From Phoronis australis (Eukaryota > Animalia > Phoronida), in assembly GCA_002633005.1 (NCBI GenBank), contig NMRA01000150.1:592453-656452 (forward strand): a stretch of 64,000 nucleotides of DNA. The letters run 5' to 3'. The notes under the pieces were generated by a model that did not search any database, was not told where the DNA came from, and saw nothing but the letters and a program-made list of their open reading frames with translations. Position numbers and translations under genes: made by a program. Positions 8,401 through 63,520 of this stretch are shown here, in pieces. Position 1 is the first letter of the stretch; each line of letters opens with the position of its first letter.

Positions 8401-11400
8401 TTATATTGTGTTGATTGCTGTAGTGCTGTGAGAGATGCTGTTATATTGTGTTGATTGCTGTAGTGCTGTGAGAGATGCTGTTATATTGTGTTGATTGCTG
8501 TAGTGCTGTGAGAGATGCTGTTATATTGTGTTGATTGCTGTAGTGCTGTGAGAGATGATCAGTTATGGAGGTCACCCTTGACACAATGTACTCATCTTTG
8601 TCCTACTGCATGTTGACAGCTGAACTCATGTCCAATATTCGTAGCTGTGCTCAAGTGACATGTCATACATTGATTCATCACTGTTCATGGCCATCTAGTT
8701 ATGTTCAAGTGACATGTCATACATTGATTCATCACTGTTCATGGCCATCTTGTTGTGTTCAAGTGACATGTCATACATTGATTCATCACTGTTCATGGCC
8801 ATCTAATTGTGTTCAAGTGACATGTCATACATTGATTCATCACTGTTCATGGCCATCTAGTTGTGTTCAAGTGACATGTCATACATTGATTCATCACTGT
8901 TCATGGCCATCTAGTTGTGTTCAAGTGACATGTCATACATTCAACACTGTTCATGGCCCATCTTTAGTCTTCAGTTCTCTTCTAGGTGTTCCTTCCTTGT
9001 CTAATGAGCGATACACAATTCACCAAGATAGACTGGACATTAGTCAAACCCTGGTGTCAGACACTGGCCTCTATGTATGTCATACGTACTTTAATGAGAC
9101 CAGCCTGGACAATGTCACTACAGAACTGGTGGTCAAAGGTAGGATTTGACAACATAGTTCCCTCATCTGGTGATAGTAAATGAAATTTTCTAAATTCAAC
9201 TCCAAACTTTAACAAACATTTGAAGGGTAAAGGTGTTGGTAAACGCCCATTTTCACGTGACGAGAGTTTGTTTATCATTTATCAAAATCTTTGTGTCACG
9301 TTTGCTGTAAAGCTCCAAGTGTGTGCACTTTAATTGTGTCAATAATAATGATGTCAGACTTTGACAGGGTATTGCCATCTGGCCAATGTATTTTCAAAGG
9401 AAGCTAGTTGTTAACTTCCTTTCGTTGAAACTAGTTTTGGTGAAGTACAATGGAGATGCAACTTGTGTGTTTTTTCTTTGGGTTGGAACTGACTCAGTTC
9501 ATTAACTACGGTTAGTATAATCCTAACTCATCTCTGGGAAAAAAGGAAAGTTGCTGAAATTGAAATTGAAATTGGTGAAAATGTGAATACGTGGAACTAT
9601 TATTAAGCGTGGTTACATGGTATCCTGTTTTATGCAAATGCAAGTCTTATGAAAATGTTATTTCTATTATGACTGCTTGGTGAACAGGTTTGGCATTTTT
9701 GCAAATTTTAGGAGAAAGGAAATGTTAGGGACTAAATGCAAACTTAAAGTGCTATAAACCGTTTCTGATCAGCCCTAGTTTATGTTGCCTGATGTACATG
9801 GTAGTGCATAGTAATGGCTCCCGTTGTGCACCACTAGCACGTGGCTGTGGCTCTTAGATAGGGTTTATTTTCTCATACTTGAATTACACACATTTCACAC
9901 TTTGTCATTTATGTGCAGTGCGAATGATCGCTCAAGTGTTGGGATTATCACCTTTACAGACAAACCTTCAACCCCTGCTGCTCTGCAAGTACTGACTGTC
10001 CTATCCAGGTGGGCATCATTTAAGTGGGAGGCAAGTCAAGACAATAATGACCCCATCTTGTATTACAAGTTACAGATCAAGTGAGTGACATTGTACTTTC
10101 TCTGTGACTCTTGAATTTTAATGCAGCGCCATCTTTGGGTGGAACCCGGTCTTTAATTTTTGATACATGTTTCATAATCTCCTTAGAAAAGAGTCACTGC
10201 TGCCATCTTGATTTTGAAATTTGCATTTTCAGTTTGACCAAATTTGCACTGTGCGGGTCTTTAAAGGGATTTTCGTAAACCCTGTTTTGGCAATTTTAAC
10301 AAGTCTTTGTATTACCCCTGGTAATGCACTTTTGGTGTCTCACTTGAATGATACAAACATTATTCAACTAAAAATACTTGCAGTACATGCCAAAAGAAAA
10401 TAAAAAATAAATCAAATATATGCTGGAATGCCATGCAATTACTGACGGATAAGTATATAAAAATAGTAAGAATAAAACGCAGAGCGTCGGTACTAAAATT
10501 TCTTAAAATATTCCCCCCATTTTGAGCGATGCGCTCTGTCAAGGGTTTGATACAGACTGCCGATTAGATGGATATAAATCAAATCTAACAGCCACCTATC
10601 TCCATGCGGTCACCAGTGCGATTTTATTTATGTCCATCTGTTCAGCATTCTGTATCATACCCTTGACAAAGAGCGCATCGCTCGAAAAATGGGGAATATT
10701 TAACATATTTAAGTACCGACGTTTGTCGTTTTATTTTTACTACAACTATTTTATGGAATCGATAAGTGCGTCACCTTGAACGCAACTTTTTGTTCAAAGG
10801 TTGTGATAAATAAAACTGAAATCAAATGAAAATCATTTGGTGCTTTTCTCGTATTACCATACTGCACCTTTCATTCATGATAGCACCGTTAGGTTTCATT
10901 GGTCCTCCGTAAGTCGGTCATCACATTGTTGGTCAGCATATCCAGTTACAACTTGTCCAATAGGGGCACTCAGAAATGTCTCACAGAAATGAGGTAGAAA
11001 CAGACGAATATTATGAAAAATAAAGCTTGTCTCATACTTTCCGAAATGTGCTTTTAAATGTTTCGGGACTAGGTTTCATGGACCCCAAAAATATTGGAAG
11101 GTGGGTCCACTAGACCCCAGTTCTTGGAAGAGTAGAGTGAACACTGCGGCTCATTATGCTATATTCTTTTGCCTTATGTATTGGTAAACGTTTTCTAATT
11201 ATGAGGTGAAACTAAAATTCCTATATTTGTAGCCTTGCTTATAAATAATTACAGTTCATATTAAACAGTTGTACACTACAAATCATGGTGGCAACTATCA
11301 AACATCAGTTATATCTACAGGTGTTGAAAATTTTGAGAGAATAAATTAAATTAACTCAAAAATGTAATGTTTTACTGCGCGTAAATATGGTTGTTTTACG

Positions 11401-14400
11401 TGACAGAAAACTGGTGCATTATTTTCATTGCTTTATTTCAGTCTGTGAAATGTGTTATGTTGAAGAATTATGGTTTTTGAAGAAAGTTTGTTGATCAAAG
11501 TTTTCAGACTAAGCATATTGTTTACATTGCTATTGTTTTGACAGGAAAGTGATGTTGGCCTCTTGGGATAGCTCTGAAGATTTCCGGATAACTGGCTCTG
11601 CTACCAACTTTAGCTTGGAAACAACATCTGACCTTCAACCTCATAAAGAATACCAAGCTAGAGTGGCGGCGATGAACAAAGTTGGAATGAGTGGCTGGAG
11701 TAACATTGTCAGTTTTGAAACAGAGGAAGATAGTAAGTGTACAGCAGTTTACAAATATGAATAATTTTGAAACAGAGGAAGATAGTAAGTGTACAGCTGT
11801 TTACAAAACTGAATCATTTTGAAACAGAGGAAGATAGTAAGTGTACAGCTGTTTACAAATATGAATAATTTTGAAACAGAGGAAGATAGTAAGTGTACAG
11901 CAGTTTACAAATATGAATAATTTTGAAACAGAGGAAGATAGTAAGTGTACAGCTGTTTACAAATATGAATAATTTTGTGTCACGCTTCCACTTGTTTGGT
12001 TAAATGAAATTGGTGTTTTTTGAAATTTGGTTATTGTGGACAGATCTTGTAAGAAGTATTGATTTTTTCTTGTGGTTCATTTTAGTGTTTTTATGGGAAT
12101 TCATTGTGGTTCTTGTTGCCATTAGTCCAAGAAAATCATTGTTCTTGGTCATCAACTGTTGTCATTGTGTCATTGTAGTCCAAGATGGTCATCATTCTTG
12201 GTCATGAACAGTCATTGTTATGTCATTGCCATTATCAATCATCACCGCTGTCGCCACAAATGGTCTTCGTCATCGTCACTATTACGGTCATAAATCATCT
12301 TCAGTTTTATAAAATTTTGGATCATGAGTATGCTGCTTGCAGAACTGATTAACATAAATTAGTTCTGCAAATAAACTGTTCTGTAAATTTATTATAGACA
12401 TCCAAGACAATCACTGGGTCACAATTACTAACAGTAGATAATTGGCTGTGTCACTACTAGGTATTCACTGGGTCTCAACTAGATAATCACTGGGTCTCAA
12501 CTAGATATTCGCAGGGTCTCAACTAGGTATTCACTGGATCTCAACTAGATATTCACTGGGTCTCAACTAGATAATCACTGGGTCTCAACTAGATATTCAC
12601 TGGGTCACAGCTAGATATTCACTGGGTCTCAACTAGATATTCAGTGGGTCTCAACTAGATATTCGCAGGGTCTCAACTAGATATTCACTGGGTCTCAACT
12701 AGATATTCACTGGGTCACAGCTAGATATTCACTAGATTTTCACTGGGTCACTGCTAGATAATTACTGGGTCTCAAGTAGATTATTGCAGGGTCACAACTA
12801 GATGATCACTGGGTCGTAACTAGGTAATCTCTGAGTCACAGCTATATAATCGTGGGGTCATGAATTACTAGCAGTAGATATTTGCTGTGGTACAACTAGA
12901 TAATCCAGTCAATTACATTGGATAAAGAATGTAACCTACTCTTTGTTTCCATACCTTTTTCAATGTTTGATTTCCAAGTGTCTAACGCAGTTTCATTTTA
13001 TTTCCTCACTGTAAGGTTAAGAAGATTGTAGCATTGTGTAAATTCAGTAACCTTATGTTTAGTCTCATTGCTAAGAGTCATTCATTAACCTTATGTTTAG
13101 TATATTTGTTAATAGTATTCATTAACCTTGTTTTGTCTATTTGTTCACAGTATTCATTAACCTTATGTTTAGTCTATTTGGTAGCAGTCATTCAAAACGA
13201 GCAGAGTACGTGGAAGTTGTGACAGATAATGTAGAGGATGTGCATGTCAGTTGTGTTAATGTAGTCATGCTTGTCTCCAGTTCCCAGCATTCCCCTGGTG
13301 TACAGTGCGACAGGTCAGACTAGTACTACTGCCAACATCTCCTGGCAACGACCAGAGCATCCTAACGGCGTTCTCAAAGATTATACCGTTCATGTGGAAC
13401 AAATACTCACCAATGGCAGTAGAAAACTGCCGTCATCAGGACTAGGACTGAACACAGGCAGTAACCAATGGAAAAAGACATTCATGATGAGAATCGGCAA
13501 CCTCAGTAAGTGTACCCACATTGTTATTGGTCCTTCATCAAAATAGTATTAAACAGTGTGTACATCGTTTATCATAGTATAGAGAAAATGCTATTTTCAC
13601 CTCATTTCTTCGCAGAACTCCTAGGATGGTCGAAACAAAAATCTACTTAGATATTGCTAAATATCTCAGGAAATTTCATTTTTGTTCAGCTCATGCGAGT
13701 GCAACATCTCTGTTGATTCTGACCCAAATGTGAGTCACATGATGTCTAGTCTGATCTTTGATGAAAACAACTACCATGGGTTTATGGGTATCAAAACTGT
13801 TGGTCACGTGATAATTGCAGGTCACGCTTTATCGTAACATTATATTGCTGATTGTTTAAGTTTTTTAAGTTCACTAATTAACCCCATCTCTTCGTAGTAT
13901 CTTGATCTGTTCATTCACTTGACTCATCAGTCATAATGTAACTGTGGTCACTTGAGTCATCCATCGTCATGTATCTGTGCTGTCATTGTGTTTTGCAGGG
14001 AATTTTTATGTAGTCTTTAACCACTGTGGTAATACTGTAACATCATTTCTAAAATCTATTGATCTATGTACTCTAACCTAGACCATTTACATTCAGGCAC
14101 TGCATTTGGTCGGTCATTTCTCTGGTCATGTTCGAGTGTCACAACCATAGACATCACATAGACTGGGTGTGTGCCACTCAGATACATGCAGCTCCCGTTG
14201 TCAATATGACGCCATATTGGAGGGTGTTACACAGGACAAAAATGTTGGAAAACACTGTGAGCCCTATGGCATCAGTCATAAAATCGGCGGGCTCGCAGTG
14301 TTATGCTTGCAGCCAACGAGTTAAGATTTTTGGTCCTGCCTTTGAGTCATAGGTTTTTTGGTTCGGCCATGGAGTTTAGAGGTGCTGACACTAGGTTTTT

Positions 14401-17400
14401 ATGTTCTGCCACCATAGTTTAAGCGGAGCGATAATGCGTTGTTTCCACTTCAGTCTTGGGGATTGAGACCATATAAGATCAATTAAAAAATAATTATTGA
14501 CCAGCATATGCTGTTATCCAATGATAATGCTGTTTTTTAATTTAAGTAAATATTTGGTATCAATGACAACCATATGTATTTTTACTTGTTCTGAAATATA
14601 ACATCCCCGAACCTACTCGCTAGCTATCAAAATCAGTACATCTAAGTGAATAAAATGTATTTGCTATTGAAATATATACTGCTAATTTCTTAATAAGTAT
14701 TCCAAAATCAGATTTCTTCTGTTGTATTAAAACAAACATTATCCCTGCAAAATCTGTACTTATGTTAAACTTGATATTGGAAATTTTGTGGATTTGCACT
14801 GCTTGCTTACGAGCTCTTTGTTTTGTGACTCAAAACTTGCGCAAAAAAGTAAAGTGCATAGTAACCAAAATATCAAACTTCTACGACTGAATTGCGCATC
14901 CAACCTATACCCAAAGTACAGAATTTCCCACAAGAAACTTAGTGGAAATATACCCAACCGAGCCGCTGTAGCATTGAATAGTGACCCTGTGAAAAATGAC
15001 CCCGGCTAGTTTTTTTACAGGGTTTAAATTTAATGTGAAGAATTTTTAGCCCATGAAAAAATGACCTCACGTCCGTGAAAACTCGTCCCGTCATTATTCA
15101 ACGGTTCCATGGGCGGATCCAGAATTTTGATTTGGGGGTGCCAAGGCAGAGGATCACATACGTGCACCCAGCCTAAAATATAGTGGGGGGGCTCGAATTT
15201 CACGTTCATGCGGACCTTTTACTGGAACAAGAAGACGAGTACTAAAAAACAGGGTACTAGGTTCAACCCCATGCATTGTGTATTCGCGACACATTCCTGT
15301 CGACGTTTTGTTTCTCTAAGAAGGGTGACACGAATTAAATGATAAATTTGCACGATCTTACTGGTTTCTCTTGAAAAAAATGAAAAAAAAATAAAACGCT
15401 CACAGTGGATAACAAGCGTGCAGCCGCTTAGACAATTCGAGAATCTGCCACTGGTTGCGATCTTCTGTTAGTTTGATATTTTCCCTATCGACTGAATGAC
15501 ACTTAAAAAAACACATGTAAGTGTGACATCACATGATTTTTTGTGTTTCTGGAAAAAAATCACACTCTTCCGCCTCTTAATTCGTTAGATATCGTGCTTT
15601 GAAAAGAGCATTTTGCCCTGTTTGTTTACACAGCAATTAGCTGTGTCACGTGACTAGTAACAATCTCCAATATGGCGTCAAGTTGTCAGCTGCAGTAGTG
15701 CGTGCGCCCGGTCTATAGTATTGAGATGACTATGGTCACAACGGTCTTGGAAGAATGAGCAAGACTGTATTGTACACTGGTCATCAGTGTTGAGCACAAG
15801 CTGGGTTTGAACCAGGTACCTCTAGATTCTCTGTCCAATAAACCAATAGATTTTAGAAATGAATATGTATGTTATCATATGATGACTTTCAAAATTCCCA
15901 TCAAAGTATGTTCTGTGGGAGTGGTTATTAATACTGTTGCAATGTTGTTCTAATATCTCGGAGTGGTTATTAATACTATTGAAATGTTCTAGCTCCATAC
16001 AGCCAGTACTGTGTGTATGTGACTGCCTCGACAGAGAAAGGCAGAAGTCCCAAACCTAAAACGTGCTTCAACCTTATCACAGATGTGGCAGGTATGTACC
16101 TGACTGTAGGCATTTTCCGTGACCCCCTGACCCTAATTAATTATGCATGAAACCTTTTGTCACTTTCCCACCAACACTACAACTCCCCTGTTTTGCACTT
16201 CTGCTATATGGGAAAGTATAACTCCTATATTAAGCTATAATTGTAACTCCTATAGTTAGCTATTGCAACTTGTCACAAAGTAAACGGATTATTGTACAAT
16301 GTGGCATAATTATGCTTCAGTGGGAAATGTTAACTCCATTTGCTAGATGTCGCTAGATGTCGCAGCATCAATCGCTCGAGACACAATGAGACATAGTCAT
16401 TCCTTTGTCTTTCATTACCAATTACTATAAATAGTCGCATGTAAAAGAAAAAGATAACAAAAATCTGACTAAGAATAACACTAATTAATCAGGCTTTAAG
16501 ATGTCTAGAAAACTTTATTAATCTCGCATAACGTATTCGCCGTAATAACCGCCCAGGGCGCTTAGAAAAGTTCGGTTCAGGAGGGGCGCTTATTATAACC
16601 CAAGGCGGTTGAAATCCGGTCTCCGAAACGGGTGAAATCGGAAGCTAAGATTCATCAAATTTACGTTCTGTGACATATCTGTAATCTATGAAAGACTTCC
16701 AACAAAACTGTGGTGAATTGCTATCAAACTTTGCTAAATTACGATCATTTTACAGAAAATTGTGTTGAAATCCCAGGGCGAAAACTCGCCGACTGACTGC
16801 CTCAAAATTGCCGTCTTCGATATGGCGACTTCAATGCTTGAATAAAAATAGTTTTGACTCAAGCAAATTACCTGAGATCCTCATTAAGTTTTCTAAGTAG
16901 CGTCCCTAAGACTTTTTTAAGTTCCCGTGGAGTCTGGATTTACGGCAGTTTTAAGTACAAATCTGCGCAACATCGTGCCATCTACATGTATTATCGGCAA
17001 CACGGCGAGAAAAATGTCTGGACGAACACACATGTTGTTGTCACGTGACGTTTGTTTTGAAGTTCGTCTGCGTGTAACCAGAGTTCATTTGCCAAAGCAG
17101 AGACCGTCTTTTGGCCAGAGCAACGCAATCTAATGAGCTAGATGTGCATTGCGTCTAAAGAAATTTGCACAAGCAGTAGGCCTAAACCAGAGCGTGTTTC
17201 ATTCAGCACTTGCCGGTCTCGTGCTAAAAATGTTTGACATTTGTTTCGGTAAGGCCCATATTAGTCGCCGTGTAGCTGGATGCGTACGTAACTATCTCAC
17301 AGTTATTTTTCGGTGTAAGGGTGTGTAAGCATTCACTGTCAGTTGTCATTTTATCGGATATTCGGCTTAAAAACACCAATTATGGTTAATCAAACAATCC

Positions 17401-20400
17401 ATCTAAAAAGTAACGCAAACATGTTTTATAGTATTAGGAATTGTTTGAAATTAGGGCCAATATTCATTTCTTACCGATGCTATGCTACCCGTTTCATGAA
17501 TGGATAGTTCCCGACTAATGTCTTTAATGACATCTAGGTTCATATATGTAGCGCGCGCTTTCTGGCCACGTGCGTTCAACACGGAGTTATTTTTATTCAT
17601 GAGACAGTCGATGTGTCTACTGAATGGTCAGACCATAGTGGGACACGGTCGTCGCGAAAGTAGCAACGCTGTTGCATTCTTTTTGAAGCGCTGTGTTACT
17701 TTGAAGTGTATAGTAACGGCTAAATACAAAGGTAGCAGTGCGGCTGGTGATCTAGAAGACCCGTGCAAAACTTTTTTGATAAATTGAAGACGTTACTGTA
17801 GTTGAGTTTTAGGACTGAAGGTACGTCATTGTTCGCATGTACACGTTCATGGACTGGGCGCTTATTTCAGTAAAGTCTGAAAACATGTGGGGGGGGCGCT
17901 TATAGGGGCATGGGCGGTTATTACGGCGAATACGGTACTCTCAATACTATGATTCAAATTCTCCATCTGTTGTTTAAATTGGAGAACTAAAGGTAACTCT
18001 GATATTGCCAGTTAATGGGAAAGGTAAGTGCAGTTGTGGTTGAGTTGCAATAGATGGGAGTTCCTGGTTTTGGTGTTGTTGGGAAAGCCATCTTAAAGTG
18101 ACATGTATTTCAGAGTCGTGCGTCTTTATTGAATATTTACATGTGATCAGAACTCGGTTCTACCGCAAGGCAGTCATTTGCATAGTTACTCAGTTAAGTG
18201 AACGTCTCTGTACATGATGCAAGGTGTGTATCGTACTCGTCCGGGTTATGGCCCATGCTCGGCTTACTGCCCACCTCCAATTTTTCATGATCGAGACTTT
18301 CGTAAAAGTATCTGTGCTTCTGTGAACGTTCGTCGCACAAAATTAAAATTCCAAAACGTGCGCAACTCGCTTACCTTTCTGTGACAATCAATCAGTTTTA
18401 GCGGAACTGGGGTCTTGCCTAACTATGGCGGTAAAATACCCATATTGTTATGCCCTTTACTGAAGGAGACAATTGTTTCCTGTGGCTCACACGCGGAACT
18501 CTTGTACTGATTACTGAGACAGCGCTTGTGGAATGTATTTCATTTGCTGTAGAAGAACAGCGAAGCAGTACTTGACAAGGATATCACGTCCATGGCACAC
18601 CTTTATGTGATTCCCCGTGACACTACACGAAACCACTCACGCTGTTTGCGGTGCATCCACTTCTCTAGCTTTTCCAAGATCAGCATGATGAATTGTTCAG
18701 TTGAATTGCTGTTTATTTAAAACACTCCAATCAACAATCTTCAATGGTATATATTCTTAGTTACCAAACTGAGCACCCTTCATAAGCTATGTTTTGTCTC
18801 AGTTATGACAAAGTTCTACCAGATTTATTGTAATCATCTGTTTTTGGTCAGTGTGATGTAGCATGTAACATATGAAATGCTCTCTTGTGGGCATAAGTGT
18901 CCGTCCAATGAGAAAGATGCATTGGGTATTAATTTGCAGTTGGAAAGCTATATTTTTTATCAAATTTGTTGGCTTTCAGTTCTGATATAATTTGACAGTG
19001 TCAAAATGTCTGACTGTACAGACATGGAACTCTTATTTGCCTTTTGGGAACATGTTTTAATACGTCTGCTTTTGATGAACTTGTTCTACTATCTGTCAAT
19101 AGGTGTCACTGGAACTTAATGAAAAATCAATTAATGCTAGTGTCACAGATATATGTCAATTGATCTGCAGAGCAGTAAGGACTGCTCAGATGTTATGTTC
19201 TGTGTATGCAGCTGATTATAGTTTGGATCTTATGTTGATCATATGGACATTTTGAAGCTATCTAAATCTCACAGCTTTATGAATCATCTAACTCATGGAT
19301 TGAAGCAAGGTTTGTAAGATGCAAGCTATACGAATAGGACCTGGTTCTCGAACAGTCTAAAAAGTTGATTTTTTTGGCTTTTGGGTTTGGTTTTCAGTCT
19401 GCTCCTGAGCAGGCTATAGATTTCTGTCATCAGGTTTCAAGTTGTAGACAGATTTTTGGACTTTTAGTCGTAGGCTGATTTCATGAAACCAGCTAAGCCA
19501 TCCGTAGACTGCTTTTTGCCCAAAGACAAAGGCTCTTCAAGAGACATCTCCCCAACAGTTAAAGATGTATTTGCATGCTCCTAACTATGCTAATGTATAG
19601 CAGGAATTAAGCGACAATGCTATTTGAACATCATCTACACTAAACGAATTGCAGTTGTATTAATTACCAATTTCTTAATGTGAAAACAAAAAAATCTGCA
19701 AATTGGTGACCTTTGCAGTAATGATGTACCTTGGGGGCTCACATAACCTGCTTCATGCAGTGTTATTACCCAACACCCGGTCATGATACTTACTGGATAT
19801 GGTAGAGTGATTTGCAACGGATCATTTTCGACGCACAAGTCGTTCTTAAAAACATTTCACAATTTTCATCCTATTTCATATGATATGTTGTGTTTCATAT
19901 TCACATCGTTATATGTTGTGTTTCATATTCACATCGTTATATGTTGTGTTTCATATTCACATCGTTATATGTTGTGTTTCATATTCACATCGTTATATGT
20001 TGTGTTTCATATTCACATCGTTATATGTTGTGTTTCCAACCAATTTGACCATGCAATCACAGAGATAAGGAATTAGTGTGCAAGTTGTACTTTAAGTCAG
20101 TCCAAACCTGGACATAAACATGTTGTAATGTAACATTTAGAGCCAAAAGTTTCGGTGCATGTGTACTACACATAGTTGAACGGCATGATCAAGTGTTTGT
20201 GAGTGGTTGTATTTTTGCCTATCTTTAGAACAAAAGTTGATGCTATGTTGTTCTCAAACCAAACCATTACTAACTGTTAAGTTTCGTCTTGTTCAACCAT
20301 TCTGTGTTTAATTATGTTTCTTGCAATGCTCATATGTTATGTACAATATTCTAGCTAATTACCTTGTTGGCATATTTAAACCAGGATTTTAGCAAGTGAC

Positions 20401-50400: not shown

Positions 50401-53400
50401 AGAGTTCATTGTTACCCAGCATCCCTTGCCTCATACTGTTCAAGACTTCTGGCGCATGGTGTGGGACCAGAATTCCATGACTATAGTTATGTTGTCACAT
50501 GTGCAAGATGAGGTGAGTAGAGATTCAACATATGTAGTGTATGGAGTACTACTAGAACCATGTGACTATTAGTAAATGTTGTCACATATTCAGTGTGAGG
50601 TTGGGTGCTTATGAAGTAATTTGATAATGTGAGGAGGGTATTTTGGGGTATTTGTGCACATTCTAACACATTTTAAAGACCATGAGTTTTGCAACTTGTT
50701 AATAATTCAATCATTCCAATATCAGGGCGAACTATTAGCTGCAAAATGACGGTTCAATCTCTAAATGTCACATCTTAGTAAGGGTGCATTGGACAGGACA
50801 AGTTCCACTTTTACCTACGACAAGTTTCAACTCTACCTGTGACAAGTTTTACCTTTACGTTTAACAAGTTTTCACCTCTACCTGTGACAAGATTGACCTC
50901 TACCTGTGACAAGTTCTGCCTCTACCTATGGCAAATTGCACCTTTGCCTGTGACAAGTCCCACCTCTGCCTGTAACAAGATTCACCTGAGTGACTCAAGT
51001 GAATCTTGTTACAGAGTGTACACACAAGTCACAGCCATGACTGCAGAGTGCAGGCACAATTCAGTCATTACTGCTAAGTGTGAGCACAGTCAGTCTGTTT
51101 TGCTTATTTGCCATCTCTTATAATCTGCTGTTTGTCTTTGTATAGTTTGGTATTTACTGGAACAACAAAGACGAGATTCTAGACTGGGAAGGGGGTAACT
51201 TCAAAGTAACGTCCATTGATGAACAGTTTCCATTAGACCATGCAGTTCGTGACTTTATGTTGGAGTCTAAGCAGGTAACAACAAGTCATAACTTTATGTT
51301 AGAGTCTACGCTGGTAACAACTAGTCATAACTTTATGTTAGAGTCTACGCTGGTAACAACTAGTCATAACTTTATGTTGGAGTCTACGCTGGTAACAACA
51401 AGTCATAACTTTATGTTGGAGTCTACGCTGGTAAAAACTAGTCACAACTTTATGTTGGAGTCTACGCTGGTAACAACTAGTCATAACTTTCATGCACCCA
51501 CATATCTATATGCGAGTGCATATTGCGGTCACCGCTGTCTGCCATCCACTGCCGTTGCACAATGGCCAACATTAATTTTCAAACTATTTTATAGTAGCGC
51601 CCCCTAGTCAACTTAAGTTTTCTTTCATTCTGCCTCAACTTAACACATGAGTTCCGATTTAGGAAAGCACACTTGTGACACCTCCTAAATGCAAATTTTC
51701 ATTGCTGATGTTGATTTTTGGGTGGCTCTAACTTTCCTGGAAATATTTTCAAAATGAGCGGCGCCCTCTGGTGTTCACTGTTTGTAATAATGGTCTTAAC
51801 AAATGTTTGTAATGCACAGTATAGACTTGCGTTGAGATATTGCCTATGTCAGAACATTTGGACTTCCTTGAGATATTGCCACCATCAGATGATATAAGAA
51901 TTGTATTGAGATATTTCCACCATCAGAGCGTATAGACTTGTGTTGAGATATTGCCACCGTCAGATCATATAGACTTGTGCTGAGATATTGAACCGTTGAA
52001 TAATCAACTAATGAGTGCGTTCTTCTATTGGGGTAAACTGTAGGATGACTATGAGTTAAAAACACGTATGTTTTCAACAACCAACTGGATTGAGGGTAAC
52101 CCCCTGGGACAGGTGTTTGACTTTATCAAGTATGTGAGGGAATGGCATAGAGGACATCAGGCAGGACCAATGATCGTCGTTGACAGGTATGTTATCGATG
52201 TATGCAGGTAAAAGTACTATCGGGTATTAACAGCGCCACCATGTGTCTCAGTACATAATATAATTATGAGTACAGTGTTAGAGAACAAGATGACATCATT
52301 AAAGCTGTATTTTGTCATGTTTCTATGATTAAAAACAAAGAAAATTAAATTAAGGCGTTTACTCTTAACTTTTAAACTCGGTCGCATTATGCCGTCATTG
52401 TTTAGCTTTCAGGCACTGTACCGAGTATCTTTTTTGATATACTTTACCGAATTACAGAATAAACTTGTGAGTCATGGCCAAGTTAATGGCAGATTGGTTT
52501 ATTTCAATGGACCTTCTTATTTCAACGAATATGTATTACAGATCAAAATTTGAAGCTTAGTTTGTAGATATTCACACTTGCCAATGAGGTTGTACATAAC
52601 TTTTAGACTTGCCATTTAGAGCTTTCTTGAGTTGGTAATGGTTTTGATGTTTTTGATGTAAAAATAGGCTCCTATCATCATATTAGGGAATATTACAGTG
52701 TTGTACACTTACCATTGTTGTGCCGATTTTATGAGAGTAAAAGGATTAATTCTAGTTTTGCTTTTTAACCAGATTAACAGAGAGAAATGCTAGTTCTTTA
52801 CTTGACTATTATTTCATTTTTGTTAAAAGCCTAACTTTTAATACAGATTTTTTTAAAAATAAAAATTAATAAATTTAGTAAATTGAATTTTGGAATTTCT
52901 GGTCATCGTGTAAAATAACAAAAATTGTTTACATACTAACCATGTCTAACTTTTTCAAAATTTACTTTAAAGTAAAGCCAATACAAAGAAGGTTGTGATG
53001 GTGCACCGTGTTGTAATAGTGAAGAGTAAGTGATAACACAGTGCCCTCTTGTGTTGACTTGTCGCAGTAATGAATCTGCATTCTGCCTTCATTGACAAGT
53101 TTAGCTTACTTGAGTTGAGTTTGGAAACTTACGAAAGGAGTTTGAACGTTGGGAGGATTAGTTAAGAACTTTTATGTATGAGTTCAATTAATTTGTTTCA
53201 GGACTTAAGGTACAGACTCCAAATATTATGGACATCTCAACATGTTCATGATTTTTATTGTTGTGGGATTTGAATTTTCTATAGTTGTGGGCAACACTGT
53301 AATATTAAACATAAACACCCTTTTTAATTATTATACAAACCCCATATTGTAATTATTATGTAACCACCTTGTTATAATTATTGTGGCAAAATAAGTAAAG

Positions 53401-54732
53401 AGAATGCAATAATGCTGAGTCATCCTTTCCTCAGTTATGGCGGCAAGATGGCGGCCACATTCTGTGCACTGATGTCATTACTGAATCAGTTGGAAGAGGA
53501 AAGGACAGTAGACGTCTACTCTATCATGAAAATGTATCATTTGAGGCGTCCGCATGTGTTTGAGTCAAAGGTAACCACTATGTAGAGCCTCCAATTGGCA
53601 TTACAGTTGGACCTCATTACAGTCTAACTAGCAATTGACAGTTATAGTCTTATTAAGGTGCAATAAAACATTGCAACACAATGCTCCTCTGATGAGCATG
53701 GTGGTTTGTGTGGGTAGACTACATGAAGTGTACTATGCTATCATGTAAACCAAGACAGATGTATTACTTGGCAAAATATAATTCGCCAAGTATATAAATC
53801 CGTCATGCTTCTTTGTACCCAACTCTGTCTGAGGAGTTGTTCTGAAATTTGGCTTGTAGATAGGTCTGGACTGTAACACTACAACTTAATGTTTTTGGCT
53901 TTATTATTACTGTAAGCTTTTGTTTTTCATACAAAATTTGCCTGTGTCTATAATTTTCCAAGATAAGTTATAGGTCTTTGTTAATGTCATATTTCATCCT
54001 GTTCAGTGTTCATTAAAATGTTCGTCCATTTCAGTGTTTATTGATATTATCCATCCTGCTCTGTATTCATTGATATCTTCGTCCTGCACCGTGTTCATTA
54101 ACATGTTTGTCCTGCTCAATGTTTGTTAACATGTTCATCGTGCTCAATATCCATTGGTATCCTTGTCCTGCTCATTGTTCATTGTTATCTTTATCGTGCT
54201 CAATATTCATTGATATGTTTGTCCTGCTCAGTGTTCGATAACATGTTCGTCCTGCTAAGTGTTCATTGATATATTCGCCCTTCTCACTTTTCATTGTTAT
54301 ATTTGTCCAGTTTAGTGTTCATTGATATCTTCTTCCTGCACAGTGTTCATTGCTGTCTCATTGCTCAGTGTTTATCATGGTTCAGTGTTTATTGATAACT
54401 TCTTCCTGTACATTGTTCATTGCTTTCTTCTTCCTGTACAGTGTTCATTAATGTCTTTGTCCTGCTCAGTGTTCATTGATACATTTGTCCTCCTCTTTGT
54501 TCATTGATATTTTCTGTGTTCATGTGCTTCTTTAATGTATCCTCAGGATGACATGTTCTTCATTTACGGAGCCATAGAGAGTATGTGTGTCAAGTCAGGA
54601 GACGGTGAGAACAATCTTGATAAGAGTCCCAGCATTCAACTGCAGACGTTTGGTGGATCACCACGCTCTTCAAATTACACCATCAGTCAATATGATAAAC
54701 AGATGTCAATGAAGAAGGAGTCAACGATTTAA
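2227..54732 (+). CDS. Ptp99A: Receptor-type tyrosine-protein phosphatase, Ptp99A-like / R5-type (Ig + 3xFN3 + TM + PTP D1 + inactive D2); spliced CDS of 26 exon positions, 3567 nt with exon 11A (~1188 aa)
   Basis: Hand-assembled exons have GT-AG boundaries and continuous phase. Motifs: wedge [66 protein letters not shown]; D2 [14 protein letters not shown] lacks the catalytic Cys, as in Ptp99A/PTPRG/PTPRZ1. Orthology is from motif recognition, not a search. Confidence 0.9.
2862..2960. repeat. (GGT/GAT)n microsatellite
   Basis: Seen directly; source of the poly-His/poly-Thr ORFs. Confidence 0.9.
3870..6233. mobile_element. Non-autonomous TIR DNA transposon, hAT-like termini with 5-bp TSD
   Basis: TIRs CAGGGCTTGACATAA and (reverse complement) CAGGGCTCGACACAA; flanking GAAAT at 3865-3869 and 6234-6238; subterminal GTCGCA/TGCGAC repeats at both ends. 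Confidence 0.78.
7190..7470. repeat. Minisatellite, 28-bp unit, ~10 copies
   Basis: TGTTGATCAACCAGTTGTAGTCAGGCAG. Confidence 0.9.
7582..7707 (+). CDS. RPTP exon 2: first half of Ig domain
   Basis: tttcag| ...DPVQLLCDG...EVIWTKDG... G|gtgagg; Ig B-strand Cys and C-strand Trp. Confidence 0.88.
8360..8558. repeat. Minisatellite, 40-bp unit x5
   Basis: GTTATATTGTGTTGATTGCTGTAGTGCTGTGAGAGATGCT. Confidence 0.9.
8645..8965. repeat. Minisatellite, 54-bp unit x~6, ending ~20 nt before the exon 3 acceptor
   Basis: Gives the [18 protein letters not shown] repeat in ORF 8565-9149. Confidence 0.9.
8986..9138 (+). CDS. RPTP exon 3: second half of Ig domain
   Basis: ttctag| ...[17 protein letters not shown]...ELVVK G|gtagga; DxGxYxC motif. 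Confidence 0.9.
9960..10080 (+). CDS. RPTP exon 4: FN3-1 N-half
   Basis: ttacag| DKPSTP...[22 protein letters not shown]|gtgagt (phase 2). Confidence 0.88.
11545..11732 (+). CDS. RPTP exon 5: FN3-1 C-half
   Basis: tgacag| ...[24 protein letters not shown]...ETEED A|gtaagt. Confidence 0.9.
11713..11978 (+). repeat. 52-bp tandem repeat x5 containing the exon 5 end and splice donor
   Basis: TTTTGAAACAGAGGAAGATA|GTAAGTGTACAGC(A/T)GTTTACAAATATGAATAA. Confidence 0.93.
12400..12850. repeat. Minisatellite, 22-bp unit
   Basis: ACTAGATATTCACTGGGTCTCA. Confidence 0.9.
13281..13505 (+). CDS. RPTP exon 6: FN3-2 N-half
   Basis: ctccag| ...[20 protein letters not shown]...IGNL A|gtaagt. Confidence 0.9.
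14146..15734. mobile_element. Non-autonomous DNA transposon (P- or hAT-like; CATAG termini, 8-bp TSD)
   Basis: Imperfect TIRs CATAG(A/T)CATC...TAGAC(T/C)GGG...GACGCCATATTGGAG; TSD GTCACAAC at 14138-14145 and 15735-15742. Confidence 0.8.
15993..16091 (+). CDS. RPTP exon 7: FN3-2 C-half (not in ORF track)
   Basis: ttctag| [34 protein letters not shown]|gtatgt; completes the LxPYxxY FN3 motif. Confidence 0.88.
16531..17935. mobile_element. Non-autonomous Tc1/mariner (pogo-like) element
   Basis: Perfect 24-bp TIR CGTATTCGCCGTAATAACCGCCCA, TA on both flanks, subterminal GGGCGCTTAT repeats. Confidence 0.85.
19880..20036. repeat. Minisatellite, 28-bp unit x~5.5
   Basis: ATATGTTGTGTTTCATATTCACATCGTT. 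Confidence 0.9.
21150..21843 (+). repeat. 33-bp minisatellite x21 whose last unit supplies the exon 8 acceptor
   Basis: TGTGGTATAATCCACTTGTTATCCATGTT(CCAA/ACAA/CTAG/ATGT/ACAG). Confidence 0.93.
21844..22043 (+). CDS. RPTP exon 8: FN3-3 N-half
   Basis: ttacag| [12 protein letters not shown]...[19 protein letters not shown]...PKYTS|gtaagt (phase 0). Confidence 0.87.
22770..23185. repeat. Minisatellite, 36-bp unit x~11
   Basis: AGGCAATACACTGTTATGAACCGCAGTATACTTACT. Confidence 0.9.
23464..23602 (+). CDS. RPTP exon 9: FN3-3 C-half (not in ORF track)
   Basis: ttgcag| [24 protein letters not shown]...[15 protein letters not shown]|gtgagt. Confidence 0.88.
23640..23875. repeat. GT-rich minisatellite (~18-22 bp unit) just after the exon 9 donor
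   Basis: TGTGTTGAGTGGTGTCTCTG. Confidence 0.88.
24193..26819 (-). mobile_element. P-superfamily-like DNA transposon derivative carrying a decayed THAP gene
   Basis: ~30-bp imperfect TIRs CAAG(G/A)AGTGTA(C/G)TAGTA(G/T)AGGAGAGTT; 7-bp TSD CTAGTAG/CTGGTAG; internal THAP exons. Confidence 0.78.
25815..26710 (-). pseudogene. Two-exon THAP zinc-finger remnant
   Basis: Exon 26710-26613 [33 protein letters not shown]|gtaagg; exon from 25980 CKHW/(frameshift)[24 protein letters not shown]...[12 protein letters not shown]. Confidence 0.85.
27048..27171 (+). CDS. RPTP exon 10: transmembrane helix
   Basis: tttcag| ...[25 protein letters not shown]|gtaagt (phase 2). Confidence 0.92.
27563..28520 (-). 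mobile_element. 5'-truncated CR1/L2-group LINE (ORF2 C-terminus, 3' end, (TAAA)n tail)
   Basis: Minus translation [31 protein letters not shown]...[12 protein letters not shown]...LQKLQNKA with stops; 3' GACTGGGT...ACCCAGTC stem-loop then (TAAA)n. Confidence 0.88.
28620..29472 (+). mobile_element. Degenerate HINE-like element
   Basis: Same internal modules; 3' end GTGGGTGCATTTCAACTTGCTGTTCTTGTT. Confidence 0.55.
30225..30292 (+). CDS. RPTP juxtamembrane exon 11A (alternative)
   Basis: ccaccag| (R)[23 protein letters not shown]|gtaagt; 68 nt, phase 2 to 1. Confidence 0.78.
30730..30794 (+). CDS. RPTP juxtamembrane exon 11B (alternative)
   Basis: ccacag| (R)[22 protein letters not shown]|gtgagt; 65 nt, phase 2 to 1. 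Confidence 0.78.
31123..32071. other. Assembly gap (N run); others at 57907-58024 and 60715-61160
   Basis: Runs of n. Confidence 0.98.
33652..33749 (+). CDS. RPTP exon 12: wedge region
   Basis: ttgcag| [33 protein letters not shown]|gtgagt. Confidence 0.92.
33708..34062 (+). repeat. Degenerate ~70-bp tandem repeat x5 containing the exon 12 end and donor
   Basis: CTGCATGCAGACAGTAACTTGAAGTTTGCACAGGAGTACGAG|GT(G/A)AGTATGGCCCAGAGTT. Confidence 0.85.
34354..34441 (+). CDS. RPTP exon 13: D1 KNRY motif
   Basis: ttatag| [30 protein letters not shown]|gtaagt. Confidence 0.93.
34846..35080. repeat. Minisatellite, 32-bp unit x~7
   Basis: TTCAGTGTTTGACCTGATAATTGGGCATACCA. Confidence 0.9.
35490..35575 (+). 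mobile_element. Short LINE (L2/CR1-like) 3' end
   Basis: GGGCCCTCTTGGAAAGCAG...CTGAAGAGGCC stem-loop followed by TAAA-rich tail, same layout as the 27563 element end. Confidence 0.45.
35632..36235. repeat. Minisatellite, 34-bp unit x~17, ending ~50 nt before exon 14
   Basis: GTATGTAGACAGGAGTTTATACTTTAACTAATTG. Confidence 0.92.
36285..36364 (+). CDS. RPTP exon 14: D1
   Basis: ttgcag| [27 protein letters not shown]|gtaagt. Confidence 0.94.
38105..38953 (+). mobile_element. HINE/DINE-like non-autonomous Helentron element (best-preserved copy)
   Basis: 5' subTIR ATGCGCCCACA plus adjacent inverted repeat, (GTCC)n microsatellite, 3' TGTGGGCGCAT then stem-loop CAACGC-TCC-GCGTTG and CTCTTGT; T-rich site, no TSD. 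Confidence 0.78.
39002..39237. repeat. Minisatellite, 29-bp unit x8
   Basis: AATGATTGACCACAGACATGTGTGAAGCT. Confidence 0.92.
39740..39874 (+). CDS. RPTP exon 15: D1
   Basis: taccag| [45 protein letters not shown]|gtaata. Confidence 0.95.
40104..40241 (+). CDS. RPTP exon 16: D1
   Basis: tcttag| [24 protein letters not shown]...[14 protein letters not shown]|gtactt. Confidence 0.94.
41487..41635 (+). CDS. RPTP exon 17: D1 WPD loop and catalytic Cys
   Basis: tcacag| [21 protein letters not shown]...PIIVHC AG|gtgaga. Confidence 0.95.
41834..42698 (+). mobile_element. HINE-like element, same family
   Basis: TTTTATGCGCCCAAATATTTATATGTGGGCGCATTATG ... GTGCATTTCAACGCTCTGCGTTGGTCTTGT. Confidence 0.75.
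42925..44290 (+). mobile_element. Degenerate HINE-like element body
   Basis: Repeated TTTCATGAAATT / GCGCCACCTAGTGGCCA modules shared with the family; ends unclear. Confidence 0.55.
44542..44677 (+). CDS. RPTP exon 18: D1 P-loop and Q-loop
   Basis: ttcaag| [20 protein letters not shown]...[13 protein letters not shown]|gtgaga; 136 nt. Confidence 0.95.
44994..45140 (+). CDS. RPTP exon 19: D1 end and D1-D2 linker
   Basis: ttacag| [22 protein letters not shown]...DKQFL|gtaaat. Confidence 0.94.
45377..47086 (+). mobile_element. HINE-like element, long variant
   Basis: TTATGCGCCCACATGTGGTGCAT ... GTGGGTGCATTTCAATGCTCTTCGTTGCTCTTGTT with many internal modules. Confidence 0.75.
47090..47591 (+). 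repeat. 41-bp minisatellite x~12 whose last unit forms the exon 20 acceptor
   Basis: TTTATTTAGTGTTTGTCCATTATACCCTGATTAGTCTATAC; last unit ...TTGTCTGTACTTTCAG. Confidence 0.9.
47592..47685 (+). CDS. RPTP exon 20: D2 start
   Basis: tttcag| [32 protein letters not shown]|gtaaac. Confidence 0.9.
48236..48415 (+). mobile_element. Penelope-like element fragment (GIY-YIG C-terminus)
   Basis: Translates [20 protein letters not shown]...KIKEAIWM...NMNRDEG...SPVYNSL. Confidence 0.75.
48765..48844 (+). CDS. RPTP exon 21: D2
   Basis: tttcag| [27 protein letters not shown]|gtgagt. Confidence 0.93.
50384..50512 (+). CDS. RPTP exon 22: D2
   Basis: ttaaag| [43 protein letters not shown]|gtgagt. Confidence 0.94.
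51146..51274 (+). CDS. RPTP exon 23: D2
   Basis: gtatag| [10 protein letters not shown]...[10 protein letters not shown]|gtaaca. Confidence 0.9.
51252..51490 (+). repeat. 39-bp tandem repeat x6 containing the exon 23 end and donor
   Basis: ACTTTATGTTGGAGTCTA(A/C)GC(A/T)G|GTAACAACTAGTCATA. Confidence 0.92.
52044..52186 (+). CDS. RPTP exon 24: D2
   Basis: ctgtag| [10 protein letters not shown]...[16 protein letters not shown]|gtatgt. Confidence 0.92.
53435..53570 (+). CDS. RPTP exon 25: D2 degenerate signature
   Basis: cctcag| [46 protein letters not shown]|gtaacc; 136 nt, same as the D1 counterpart. Confidence 0.93.
53985..54520. repeat. Degenerate ~29-bp tandem repeat leading up to the last exon acceptor
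   Basis: GTCCTGCTCAGTGTTCATTGATAT-like units. Confidence 0.8.
54547..54732 (+). CDS. RPTP last coding exon, ends ...KKESTI*
   Basis: cctcag| [12 protein letters not shown]...; TAA at 54730-54732. Confidence 0.9.
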   Translation, partial: DDMFFIYGAIESMCVKSGDGENNLDKSPSIQLQTFGGSPRSSNYTISQYDKQMSMKKESTI

Positions 54733-56037: not shown

Positions 56038-56043
56038 AATAAA
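56038..56043 (+). terminator. Candidate polyadenylation signal of the RPTP gene (another AATAAA at 55186-55191)
   Basis: AATAAA hexamers ending a repeat-free, T-rich 3'UTR-like stretch. Confidence 0.4.
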
Positions 56044-60057: not shown

Positions 60058-60422
60058 CTGAAAGTAAATGGTAACAATTAGGTAGTTATAGCTATCCTAA
60101 TGGTAATGATAGTGTAATAATAATAATCCTAATGGTAACCATGGGTAAAAATAGCAATCCTAATGGTAACGATGGGGGTAATATTAGCATTACTAATAAT
60201 GATGAGGTAATAATAGCGATTATAAAGGTAACTATGGGATTATAATAGTGATCCTAATGGTAAAGATGGGGCAATAATATTGATCTTATTGAAAATGATG
60301 GGGTAATATAAGCAATCCCAAGGGTAATGATGGGGTAATAGTAGCCATCCTAAAGGTAAAAATGGGGTAATAATAGTGATGCTATGGGTAACCATAGGGT
60401 AATAATAATGATCCTAATGGTA

Positions 60423-60714
60423 ACAAGAGCAACGCAGAGCGTTGAAATGCTCCCACAATTGCACCACATACGGTATCCTTCTAGGGTTGTTTATTGGTAC
60501 CATAAAGTGGCCAGTAGAGGGCATATTTTTTATGTAGTATGTTGTACTTTGCAAAATAGAAAGGCATGGTCATTGTCTCCTCAATAGGCTAGGGGCAAAA
60601 TGTGAGTAATCTTCATAATACAAGCACATCCTATACACCAGTTGCTTAAAGCACCGCAGAAACATAGAATTAAAAACAAATTTACCAACATACGAGATTA
60701 GCACAGCATTAGAA
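60423..60714 (-). mobile_element. 3' part of HINE-like element running into a gap
   Basis: Reverse complement is near-identical to 38684-38953. Confidence 0.85.
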
Positions 60715-62451
60715 NNNNNNNNNNNNNNNNNNNNNNNNNNNNNNNNNNNNNNNNNNNNNNNNNNNNNNNNNNNNNNNNNNNNNNNNNNNNNNNNNNNNNN
60801 NNNNNNNNNNNNNNNNNNNNNNNNNNNNNNNNNNNNNNNNNNNNNNNNNNNNNNNNNNNNNNNNNNNNNNNNNNNNNNNNNNNNNNNNNNNNNNNNNNNN
60901 NNNNNNNNNNNNNNNNNNNNNNNNNNNNNNNNNNNNNNNNNNNNNNNNNNNNNNNNNNNNNNNNNNNNNNNNNNNNNNNNNNNNNNNNNNNNNNNNNNNN
61001 NNNNNNNNNNNNNNNNNNNNNNNNNNNNNNNNNNNNNNNNNNNNNNNNNNNNNNNNNNNNNNNNNNNNNNNNNNNNNNNNNNNNNNNNNNNNNNNNNNNN
61101 NNNNNNNNNNNNNNNNNNNNNNNNNNNNNNNNNNNNNNNNNNNNNNNNNNNNNNNNNNNNCAAAAGTGAAGAGTTGTATGATAATTGTGCGTTTTATTGG
61201 CATCATCATTTCTCAATTAATTTAACTGACATGCACAACTTTTAATGGAATTGAACACTTGCAGTGAAGCCAGGCAAAGTGACATCACAGTGTGGTGCTC
61301 CACATAAGTCAAGCACTCACTTAACAAAAAAAAAGAGCAAGCAAAGTAATATTTTCTAAAGTTGGCGAACATAAGACTAGTACATTACACAACCCTATAC
61401 TCAGGTCGGTACATTTCATTCCCACATCAGAGTGACAAATGAGTACATAGTTCCACAACATCACTCACTTATTACCCAGTTCCAAGTTCATTTAACTTGC
61501 AAGAAATAAGTTAAACTAATTTGAACATTTTCTGCCAATAAATACTGACAAATACTGGCACATCTAGGATGCTGTAAAGAAGAATCCATCTTTTTCAAAG
61601 GAAAATATCTGCCACAGTCCCTAAAAACGGCATAAAACACATAGATAACTACAGATAACAGCTTGAGCCATCAACAAACCCAGTGAGTGATTAGAAGACT
61701 GATAATGTTGCACTCGCAGACATTATGGTTAGGTATGACATGCCATACAGTCAACTGATTTGTCACAAATCTTTTGATGGTTTCTGTGCATTATTATTTT
61801 AAACTGGTTATTGCAGCTGAAACCACTTGAATCTTGAAGCCAATTGACTGATGACTTCATGTGTTCGAGGAGCTAGTTTCCATTACTGCTGCACCACCTA
61901 TTGGCCATCTTATTCTGGAACGCGTTCTGTAGATCCGACTCTCGTGAGGAAAATTAGACAGTGTGACGATGTACTTTGGATGTAATCCATAGTGAAAATT
62001 TGCAAACATTTTGGGAACAGCTACTTAAAACAAATGGGAGGTGATAAAACAATTCGCTTATTAGGCATGACCTAAGTCCTGTAGTTTACTAAACCAGGAC
62101 ACAGCGCCAGCTAAACAGACAATGACCGTGGTAATCCCAGAAATAAACAAGTCAACTTCAAAAGACCAACTGTTCATCATGACAGACGACTGATTTACAG
62201 AAGACCACAAAATTGAAGATCATTTCGTCAAGCAGCCCTGGTTAGTTTTATTTTCAAAATGGCTTATCACACTTCTATATTTTTCACAGAGGTACAATTT
62301 AAATAGTGAGCAGTGACCACCATAATTTGATTTCCACACAAGAGTGACATCTTGTGGCAAACTCATGGGTACCCATAATTAACACAATGTCAACCATTTA
62401 CCAATAGGTATTCCTCACAATAAATTAACAGTTAGAATAATGTACAGCCAA

Positions 62452-62705
62452 CTACGAATAAAACTTGCTTCTTCTCAACTGCTTTGTTTGAGGTGAACTT
62501 TGCTTTTGGTTTTTGACTCTTGGAGACTGGGAATGTATTTTCTGAAAAATTTCTGGAAATTTATTGTCAGGGAACAATGTTTCAAGAATGCCTTCCAAGA
62601 AGACGTATATAAGCCTTCTATTCATCTTTCTATGTTGAAACATTTTGAAGATTCGTAAAACTCCTTTTCTTGTAGTCTCACTTCCAATTAGGTGGCGCAT
62701 TTCAT
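62452..62705 (-). CDS. SNX13: Sorting nexin-13-like, last coding exon, copy 2
   Basis: Same peptide as copy 1; one synonymous CTA/TTA difference seen. Confidence 0.88.
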
Positions 62706-62709
62706 CTGA

Positions 62710-63520
62710 AAGTAAATGGTAACAATTAGGTAATTATAGCTATCCTAATGGTAATGATAGTGAAATAATAATAATCCTAATGGTAACCATGGGTAAAAAT
62801 AGCAATCCTAATGGTAACGATGGGGGTAATACTGGCATTACTAATAATGATGAGGTAATAATAGCGATCCTAAAGGTAACAATGGGATTATTATAGCGAT
62901 CCTAATGGTAAGGATGAGGCAATAATATTGATCTTATTGAAAATGATGGGGGTAATATAAGCAATCCCAAGGGTAATGATGGGGTAATAGTAACGGTCCT
63001 CAAGGTAACAATGGGGTAATAATAGTGATGCTATGGGTGCCCATAGGGTAATAGTAATGATCCTAATGGTAAAAATGGGGTACTAGGTGATCTTAATGGC
63101 AACGATGGGGTAATACCGATTCTAAAAGTAACGACGGGGTAATAATAGCAACCCTAATGGTAACGATGAGGTGATAAAAGCAATCTTAAGGTAACAAATA
63201 GTAATGATGGGGGCAACAGCAACCCTAGTGGTAACAATGAGGGGTAATAATAGCAACCCTAAAGGTAACGATGGGCAATAACATTGATTCTGAGGGTAAC
63301 AATGGGATACTAATAGTGATCCTAATGGTACTCATGAGGGAATTATGGTGGTTTTAATGGCAACTGATTGGGAAATAATTGTGGCCCAAATGGAAACAAC
63401 AGGGTAATATTGATCCTAAAGGTAACAACAGCGTAATAACAGAAATCCTAATGGTAACGATGGAGGTAATAATATCGATCCTAAGGGTAACCATAGGGTA
63501 ATAATAGCAATCCCAATCTT
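62710..63520. repeat. Degenerate minisatellite abutting the SNX13 last-exon acceptor (also 60062-60422)
   Basis: ATCCTAATGGTAACGATGGGGTAATAATAGC-like units. Confidence 0.85.

Follow-up and report, generated by a model that had tools for sequence, protein, structure and literature searches.

Minisatellite-like tandem copies of an exon-intron boundary are known from amphioxus as mirages, and the passages of the two reports that deal with them (PMC3087553; PMC3902484) place them in Adh3, the globin genes BflGb6 and BflGb9, troponin C and PGBD5, at donors or acceptors, with a unit of 10-160 bp that differs per site, with normal splicing and with an origin that is called unclear; in the globin mirages the edge units are excluded from homogenisation (PMC3087553). 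In human F7, the first unit of a 37-bp variable number tandem repeat (VNTR) in intron 7 spans the exon-intron boundary, the identical donor pseudo-sites are silent and the most upstream donor is chosen, which the pertinent part of PMC1557585 explains by scanning, in mammalian cells. For minisatellites in general, the Haber-Louis model, as outlined in a section of PMC6947457, starts from a seed unit that lies between direct repeats of 5-10 bp, with slippage or unequal exchange. Here we analyse 64,000 nucleotides of Phoronis australis DNA (contig NMRA01000150.1, positions 592,453 to 656,452; hereafter the window), in which a predicted Ptp99A-like receptor tyrosine phosphatase gene carries tandem arrays that copy six of its splice sites and that crowd, more generally, in front of its acceptors.

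Tandem Repeats Finder (TRF) gave 64 rows in the window, merged to 35 arrays with a period of at least 10 inside the gene, and these cover 7,569 of the 47,924 intron bases (16%). A preliminary description of the window had reported tandem arrays that overlap or abut exon edges, and on a 26-exon model this observation is real; its wider statement, that they copy the splice sites at many exons, has to be narrowed to 6 of 52 sites, most arrays being near a site without copying it. The six straddle and copy the donors of exons 5, 10, 12 and 23 and the acceptors of exons 18 and 19, each with its own unit of 35-71 bp, and a 20-mer probe across each of the 52 sites found a copy (at least 15 matches) at the same six only. 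The remaining 29 arrays are ordinary intronic minisatellites that span no boundary. Three further arrays end at most 10 nt before an acceptor (exons 8, 20 and 21), and two degenerate copies, at exons 7 and 22, fall under the TRF threshold and were kept out of all counts. The features at or next to the junctions, all on the plus strand, are the following.

11713..11977, plus strand: donor array of exon 5, 52 bp x5.1 (20 exon + 32 intron)
27160..27231, plus strand: donor array of exon 10, 35 bp x2.1, with one weaker decoy
33706..34016, plus strand: donor array of exon 12, 71 bp x4.5 (44 exon + 27 intron)
51252..51490, plus strand: donor array of exon 23, 39 bp x6.1
44444..44556, plus strand: acceptor array of exon 18, 56 bp x2 (42 intron + 14 exon)
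44887..44999, plus strand: acceptor array of exon 19, 42 bp x2.7, with an in-frame, stop-free decoy at -42
21155..21843, plus strand: exon 8 array, 33 bp x21 with a 132-bp higher order; the last unit is the acceptor
47103..47588, plus strand: exon 20 array, 41 bp x11.8, ending 3 nt before the exon
48663..48757, plus strand: exon 21 array, 41 bp x2.4, degenerate, ending 7 nt before the exon
15917..15992, plus strand: exon 7 duplicate, a 42-bp degenerate copy before the exon, with no decoy AG
50553..50601, plus strand: degenerate copy of the end of exon 22, under the TRF threshold

The donor copies that had been claimed at exons 5, 10, 12 and 23 therefore stand as drawn, and the one at exon 22 is real (score 46 vs a maximum of 34 in 500 shuffles) but degenerate, with a weak copied donor. 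On the acceptor side the claim was right for exons 18 and 19, where exon sequence is included, whereas the arrays of exons 8, 20 and 21 stop 1, 3 and 7 nt short; the exon 7 duplicate also exceeds 500 shuffles (50 vs a maximum of 32) but offers no decoy AG. The copied AG or GT is intact at exons 5, 12, 18 and 19, weakened at exons 10 and 23, and lost at exons 7 and 21. As to the decoys themselves, the exon 5 array has four identical donors, with every extension running into a stop, the exon 12 array has two that are as strong as the real donor (11.3 vs 10.8 bits) and out of frame, and the exon 23 array has five weaker ones in steps of +39, all in frame and stop-free. AG sites above 3 bits number seven in the exon 8 array and ten in the exon 20 array, and the exon 21 array has none. 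The 33-bp array of exon 8 (21155-22043 region) is stop-free in the exon 8 frame over its whole 688 nt, and decoy acceptors there would therefore give in-frame insertions; for one such unit the chance of a stop-free frame is about even.

Each array is a sequence of its own, as had been proposed: among 780 pairs of 40 units the best local score was 25, and the sole related pair in the window is the duplicate of an array in the neighbouring SNX13-like gene.

These features bring the locus close to the amphioxus mirages, with six arrays that span boundaries at donors as well as acceptors, own units of 35-71 bp, AG or GT kept in many but not all copies, and normal splicing at exons 18, 19 and 23 in RNA of other animals; as in the globin mirages, the working unit of exon 23 stays outside homogenisation. 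The host differs. A lancelet was considered and rejected, the SNX13-like last exon (minus strand) being 56% identical to Branchiostoma vs 68% to an annelid, and the phosphatase grouping weakly with the brachiopod Lingula. Unlike the mirages, most arrays here precede an acceptor without copying it, and the bias is measured against a null, whereas the mirage passages of PMC3087553 and PMC3902484 have no null model. The exon 5 array has the same design as the F7 VNTR in the part of that study concerned with it, but F7 has one donor site in one gene and the present gene has six sites of both kinds; scanning, if it operates in the phosphatase gene, would be an assumption carried over from F7. The Haber-Louis model is matched by a direct repeat at three of the four clean junction arrays, but, in the section cited, it has no link to splice sites and leaves the acceptor bias unexplained. 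We found no genome-wide or lophotrochozoan account of mirages in a literature search that left most subscription journals outside, and the portion of PMC10078293 consulted has nothing on boundary-spanning repeats.

The position of the arrays was compared with several nulls. Sixteen of the 35 lie at most 60 nt from a splice site, against 4.2 expected when placed anywhere in the gene and 6.1 within the own intron (5.0 and 7.3 when self-BLAST repeats are avoided), and 0 of 3000 random draws reached 16 (p<0.001); at a stricter TRF setting 13 of 30 were near, vs 3.6-6.6 expected (p at most 0.002). Arrays that come near a site without touching it are listed here, together with that of the SNX13-like last exon.

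8642..8963, plus strand: 54 bp x6, ending 22 nt before exon 3
13042..13194, plus strand: 38 bp x4, ending 86 nt before exon 6
23641..23872, plus strand: 20 bp x11.8, from 38 nt downstream of the exon 9 donor
35632..36233, plus strand: 34 bp x17.6, ending 51 nt before exon 14
41317..41408, plus strand: 28 bp x3.2, ending 78 nt before exon 17
50280..50360, plus strand: 35 bp x2.3, ending 23 nt before exon 22
51820..51990, plus strand: 37 bp x4.6, ending 53 nt before exon 24
53313..53382, plus strand: 25 bp x2.8, ending 52 nt before exon 25
53989..54514, plus strand: 28-bp degenerate array of 526 nt, ending 32 nt before exon 26
62715..63517, minus strand: SNX13 last-exon array, 32 bp x25, degenerate, 9 nt before the acceptor (exon edge 62705)

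Those of exons 3, 6, 14, 17, 22, 24, 26 and SNX13 had been named beforehand and are confirmed; those of exon 25, of donor 9 and of exon 2, where the array end is 119 nt from the acceptor, had been missed.

Because arrays grow from inside, in the strict null each of them was reduced to a single unit, and seeds had to lie no farther than a set cap from one junction or the other. With the tightest cap, 150 nt (20 arrays), the acceptor side had 11 within 60 nt vs 5.1 expected (p=0.005), the donor side 5 vs 5.1 (p=0.61), and 6 spanned a junction vs 3.3 (p=0.10). A mask of high-copy repeats, made from read depth in 13 of the 26 introns, took up 12,372 of 23,043 bases; the arrays do expand the introns, as had been suggested, but these repeats add more. 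Masked DNA holds 2 of 19 arrays and the residual 7,497 bases hold 17 (p=5e-6; a 14-fold lack). For these 17 the acceptor side still had 8 within 60 nt, vs 2.6 expected when pooled (p=0.002) and 3.9 in the own intron (p=0.015), the donor side 3 vs 2.6-3.9, and 4 spanned a junction vs 1.8-2.7; both sides together gave 10 vs 5.1 pooled (p=0.014) and 7.2 in the own intron (p=0.09). Within 30 nt the acceptor excess has p=0.007. Under the strict nulls, collapsed or masked, neither donor proximity (p=0.5-0.8) nor junction spanning (p=0.09-0.26) was significant. Over all 35 arrays, 24 are closer to the acceptor than to the donor (p=0.04), and the share of intron 20-mers that have a nearby copy is 21-33% in the 11-800 nt that precede acceptors, 6-15% downstream of donors and 2-4% farther away than 800 nt.

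That arrays avoid transposon DNA and that their ends pile up just before acceptors is solid. A null that excludes transposon sequence had been set beforehand as the test of seeding at exon-intron boundaries, and what survives it is the enrichment in the last ~60 nt before acceptors (13 of 26 introns), not donor proximity or junction spanning. Copying of a splice site is expected when a seed in this pre-acceptor zone overlaps the exon edge.

Use of the sites was followed in three stranded RNA runs that carry the same species label and come from other animals (about 18-19% of each was read). Real sites were used at all seven junctions tested, from exon 17 to exon 24, with 321 reads (44, 34, 44, 43, 21, 47 and 88 in order), including the array-bearing acceptors of exons 18 (44 reads) and 19 (34) and the donor of exon 23 (88), and the RNA-like contigs of run X5 show six of these seven junctions. 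The spliceosome thus uses the exon-proximal copy at the junctions tested, as predicted from the letters; this position would follow from the kept reading frame, and we take it to be silent on mechanism. The decoys that had been foreseen exist in the sequence, but no joint to a decoy occurs among the 15 joints listed of 65 for exons 17-24. Bin depth shows no excess for the exon 19 decoy at -42, and at exon 23, where a repeat fragment shares the bin, the decoys could account for ~12 reads at most, vs 88; decay would not hide either, because both are in frame and stop-free. The splice-site copies are therefore likely to be harmless. Exons 18 (44539-44541) and 22 (50381-50383) have an AAG acceptor instead of YAG, and RNA reads join both exons at it. 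Between 7500 and 21150, transposon reads and contigs dominate the mapping, with no exon joint among the 15 listed of 107.

The reading we prefer, with moderate confidence, is that the arrays are locally born, mutually unrelated minisatellites of the mirage type that crowd intron ends, mostly before the acceptor, and are likely neutral. A stretch of 20-70 bp would be duplicated via slippage between short direct repeats, and the duplicate would then be amplified by unequal exchange; where the stretch happened to straddle an exon edge, the splice site would be copied with it (6 of 52 sites), and the spliceosome would pick the exon-proximal copy. Exon flanks would be the old, stable part of the intron, with transposons filling and turning over the cores, and an array whose last unit covers the branch-point and pyrimidine zone could be shielded from deletion. 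The zone intolerant of deletion or invasion is some tens of bases at the acceptor and under ten at the donor. A protected zone so much longer at acceptors may produce the acceptor bias, and these lengths would give roughly the 11:5 split of acceptors to donors seen.

Several features at the array ends are consistent with such a history. Three of the four clean junction arrays (exons 5, 10 and 23) are closed by a 5-nt direct repeat of the unit start, for which the background is 0.0066 per site; this suggests slippage as the seeding event. All five copies of the exon 23 unit have two changes that are missing from the working unit; one mutated copy was therefore probably amplified, with the working unit kept apart. 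Older units of the exon 20 array lie at 45295-45376, beyond an inserted element (score 99 vs a shuffle maximum of 62), and the array next to the last exon of SNX13 has a second copy, cut by a repeat element that starts at 60423-60425; the two copies match over 11 units, after which one has the repeat element and a gap of N.

45377..47087, plus strand: interspersed repeat element inserted into the exon 20 acceptor array
60067..60424, minus strand: second SNX13 array copy, 349/369 aligned letters identical

Since an element sits inside an array twice (45377-47087; 60425), arrays can predate the transposons that now fill intron cores. Members of this element family lie at 38105-38953, 41835-42698, 45377-47087, 60425-60714 and also 56199-56681; they are non-coding, T-rich at the 5' edge and conserved at the 3' end, with a short inverted repeat and, in one copy, a (GTCC)n run, they presumably resemble DINE-1/Helentron-associated elements, and pieces of the family are transcribed and abundant in the RNA runs.

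A number of observations weigh against this account of neutral, retained arrays. The exon 18 duplicate has an overhang of 1 nt only. No age gradient was seen in the relation of distance to percent match (rho 0.00), and the median match is 87 near and 83 far from sites (p=0.99), whereas retention predicts older arrays near exons; five of the eight most uniform arrays (at least 94%) lie within 22 nt of a site. The RNA comes from other animals, which may lack the arrays, and with 15 of 65 joints listed rare use of decoys is possible. The data are of one gene, the 60-nt cut-off is one of several and was picked after the data had been seen, and the repeat mask, available for 13 of 26 introns, is a coarse one with bins of 360-460 nt.

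The lack of an age gradient fits biased birth or expansion as well as retention, or better, and brings up the strongest rival, a tentative one in our view, in which the ~60 nt that precede an acceptor are simply more prone to small tandem duplication. Causes could be a polymerase that pauses at the 3' splice site or R-loops formed there, the edge of a nucleosome, or tracts of repair and recombination that begin in the conserved exon and slip at the point where strongly diverged haplotypes cease to be similar. Besides the uniform arrays near sites, it would account for the acceptor excess, which holds under every null tried, for fresh two-copy duplicates on the junctions of exons 18, 19 and 10, for the 14-fold deficit of arrays in masked repeats and for the surplus of arrays nearer the acceptor. 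Yet high uniformity is a mark of recent expansion rather than of birth, junction spanning stays at p=0.09-0.26 under the strict nulls, and homogenisation shows no convincing polarity toward the exon (8 of 11 near arrays; differences of 0.00-0.14, either way). Two of the most uniform arrays, 19883-20036 (100%) and 39002-39237 (98%), are far from exons; by read depth the former is inside a high-copy element, and the latter is between repeat copies.

A selected function, with arrays serving as splicing elements (pyrimidine tracts, branch points or protein-binding sites) or tuning output through decoys and decay, seems improbable to us. The arrays do stand beside acceptors, have a higher share of T on their sense strand than the introns as a whole (0.365 vs 0.340) and contain in-frame, stop-free decoys in three cases (exons 8, 19 and 23), but the 40 units have no motif in common, drift has weakened several of the copied sites (exons 10, 23, 7 and 21), no decoy joint is among the 15 of 65 listed, and bin depth has no room for the exon 19 decoy and room for at most ~12 reads, vs 88, for those of exon 23.

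Chance or artefact, where short ancestral introns put every seed near an exon or the assembly stutters at exon edges, is similarly doubtful: the residual unique introns are indeed short (119-1072 nt), the masked own-intron null for both sides together gave p=0.09, and the assembly contains N gaps and probably a second haplotype left uncollapsed, but the acceptor excess keeps p=0.015 in the strictest null and p=0.007 within 30 nt, private variants, the 132-bp higher-order pattern and unit identities down to 70%, many of them 70-80%, are unlike assembly errors, and contigs of DNA run X1, which may be the source sample, break inside arrays (e.g. 11742 / 11948) and continue through the flanks, as expected if the repeats are present in the reads.

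Two further candidates were rejected. A satellite carried by transposons would have one element and one unit, and here the units are unrelated and 2 of 19 arrays lie in masked repeat DNA; intron gain by tandem duplication (the Rogers model), which would leave the repeat at both ends of the new intron, is at odds with arrays that touch one intron end while the other end is unrelated sequence. Intron positions of the PTP domain are probably ancient.

The window, a stretch of animal DNA, has ~38% GC and three N gaps. The phosphatase gene (2236..54732, plus strand) was rebuilt by hand from GT-AG edges and reading frame and has 26 exons, exon 11 as alternatives 11a and 11b, and an open frame of 1184-1185 aa.

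2236-2482, 7582-7707, 8986-9138, 9960-10080, 11545-11732 and 13281-13505, plus strand: exons 1-6, from frame and GT-AG
15993-16091, 21844-22043, 23464-23602 and 27048-27171, plus strand: exons 7-10, from frame and GT-AG
30225-30292 (11a) or 30730-30794 (11b), plus strand: exon 11, from frame and GT-AG
33652-33749, 34354-34441, 36285-36364, 39740-39874, 40104-40241 and 41487-41635, plus strand: exons 12-17, the edge of exon 17 also an RNA joint
44542-44677, 44994-45140, 47592-47685, 48765-48844 and 50384-50512, plus strand: exons 18-22, from frame and RNA joints
51146-51274, 52044-52186, 53435-53570 and 54547-54732, plus strand: exons 23-26, from frame, with RNA joints up to exon 24

Judged by its translation, the product would be a Ptp99A-like receptor tyrosine phosphatase with Ig, three FN3, a transmembrane segment and two PTP domains: Pfam assigns Ig and FN3 to the early exons and tyrosine phosphatase to the late exons, with a family match for 11 of 12 pieces, homologues carry the name Ptp99A-like, Lingula gives the best full-length match (42% over 1046 columns), and in a tree of 16 proteins the product stands beside this brachiopod with weak support (86/76), which makes a lophotrochozoan host likely. 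A homologue search with the exon 9 region gave no match. Exons 11a and 11b are small juxtamembrane exons of 68 and 65 nt with the same phases, and they are likely to be mutually exclusive, because the frame is open with either one alone and closed with both or neither. In exon 5 (FN3), six differences within 17 nt (11671-11687) separate the window from all reads of the three RNA runs, which points either to a strongly diverged allele or to animals of another population, or of a cryptic species, that share the label.

Downstream, there are two copies of the SNX13-like last exon with its 3' region (58528-60064 and 61161-62712), 94% identical, each beside an N gap and each with the SNX13 array, which likely reflect an uncollapsed second haplotype or a tandem duplication. 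Two arrays lie at the margins of the window, one of 50 bp x7.6 at 589-968, upstream of the phosphatase start codon and beside a repeat that is common to 4480-4920, and one of 30 bp at 63852-64000, which lies inside SNX13 and continues past the end of the window; the window has no known splice site close to either of them.

The type of repeat, the mirage, is already known, and what the locus adds is a measured acceptor-side bias in one gene, modest but persistent. It offers a dense, measurable mirage case outside lancelets and a first one-gene estimate of the excess at acceptors and of the avoidance of transposon DNA, and its in-frame decoys make splice-site choice testable by RNA sequencing (RNA-seq) alone. 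A bolder proposal, rather speculative for us, is that the branch-point and pyrimidine zone of the 3' splice site is a preferred birthplace of small tandem duplications, here and in other marine invertebrates. If so, splicing, or the edge of haplotype similarity at exons, would steer how DNA mutates, mirages would be the part that one sees of a genome-wide growth of introns anchored at acceptors, and the decoys of exons 8, 19 and 23 would be a natural test of splice choice, free of nonsense-mediated decay. Should biased birth be true genome-wide, splicing signals would be tied to the sites of DNA duplication and introns would have a second engine of growth beside transposons; should retention be true genome-wide, the arrays would show cleanly how constraint can shape a repeat landscape.

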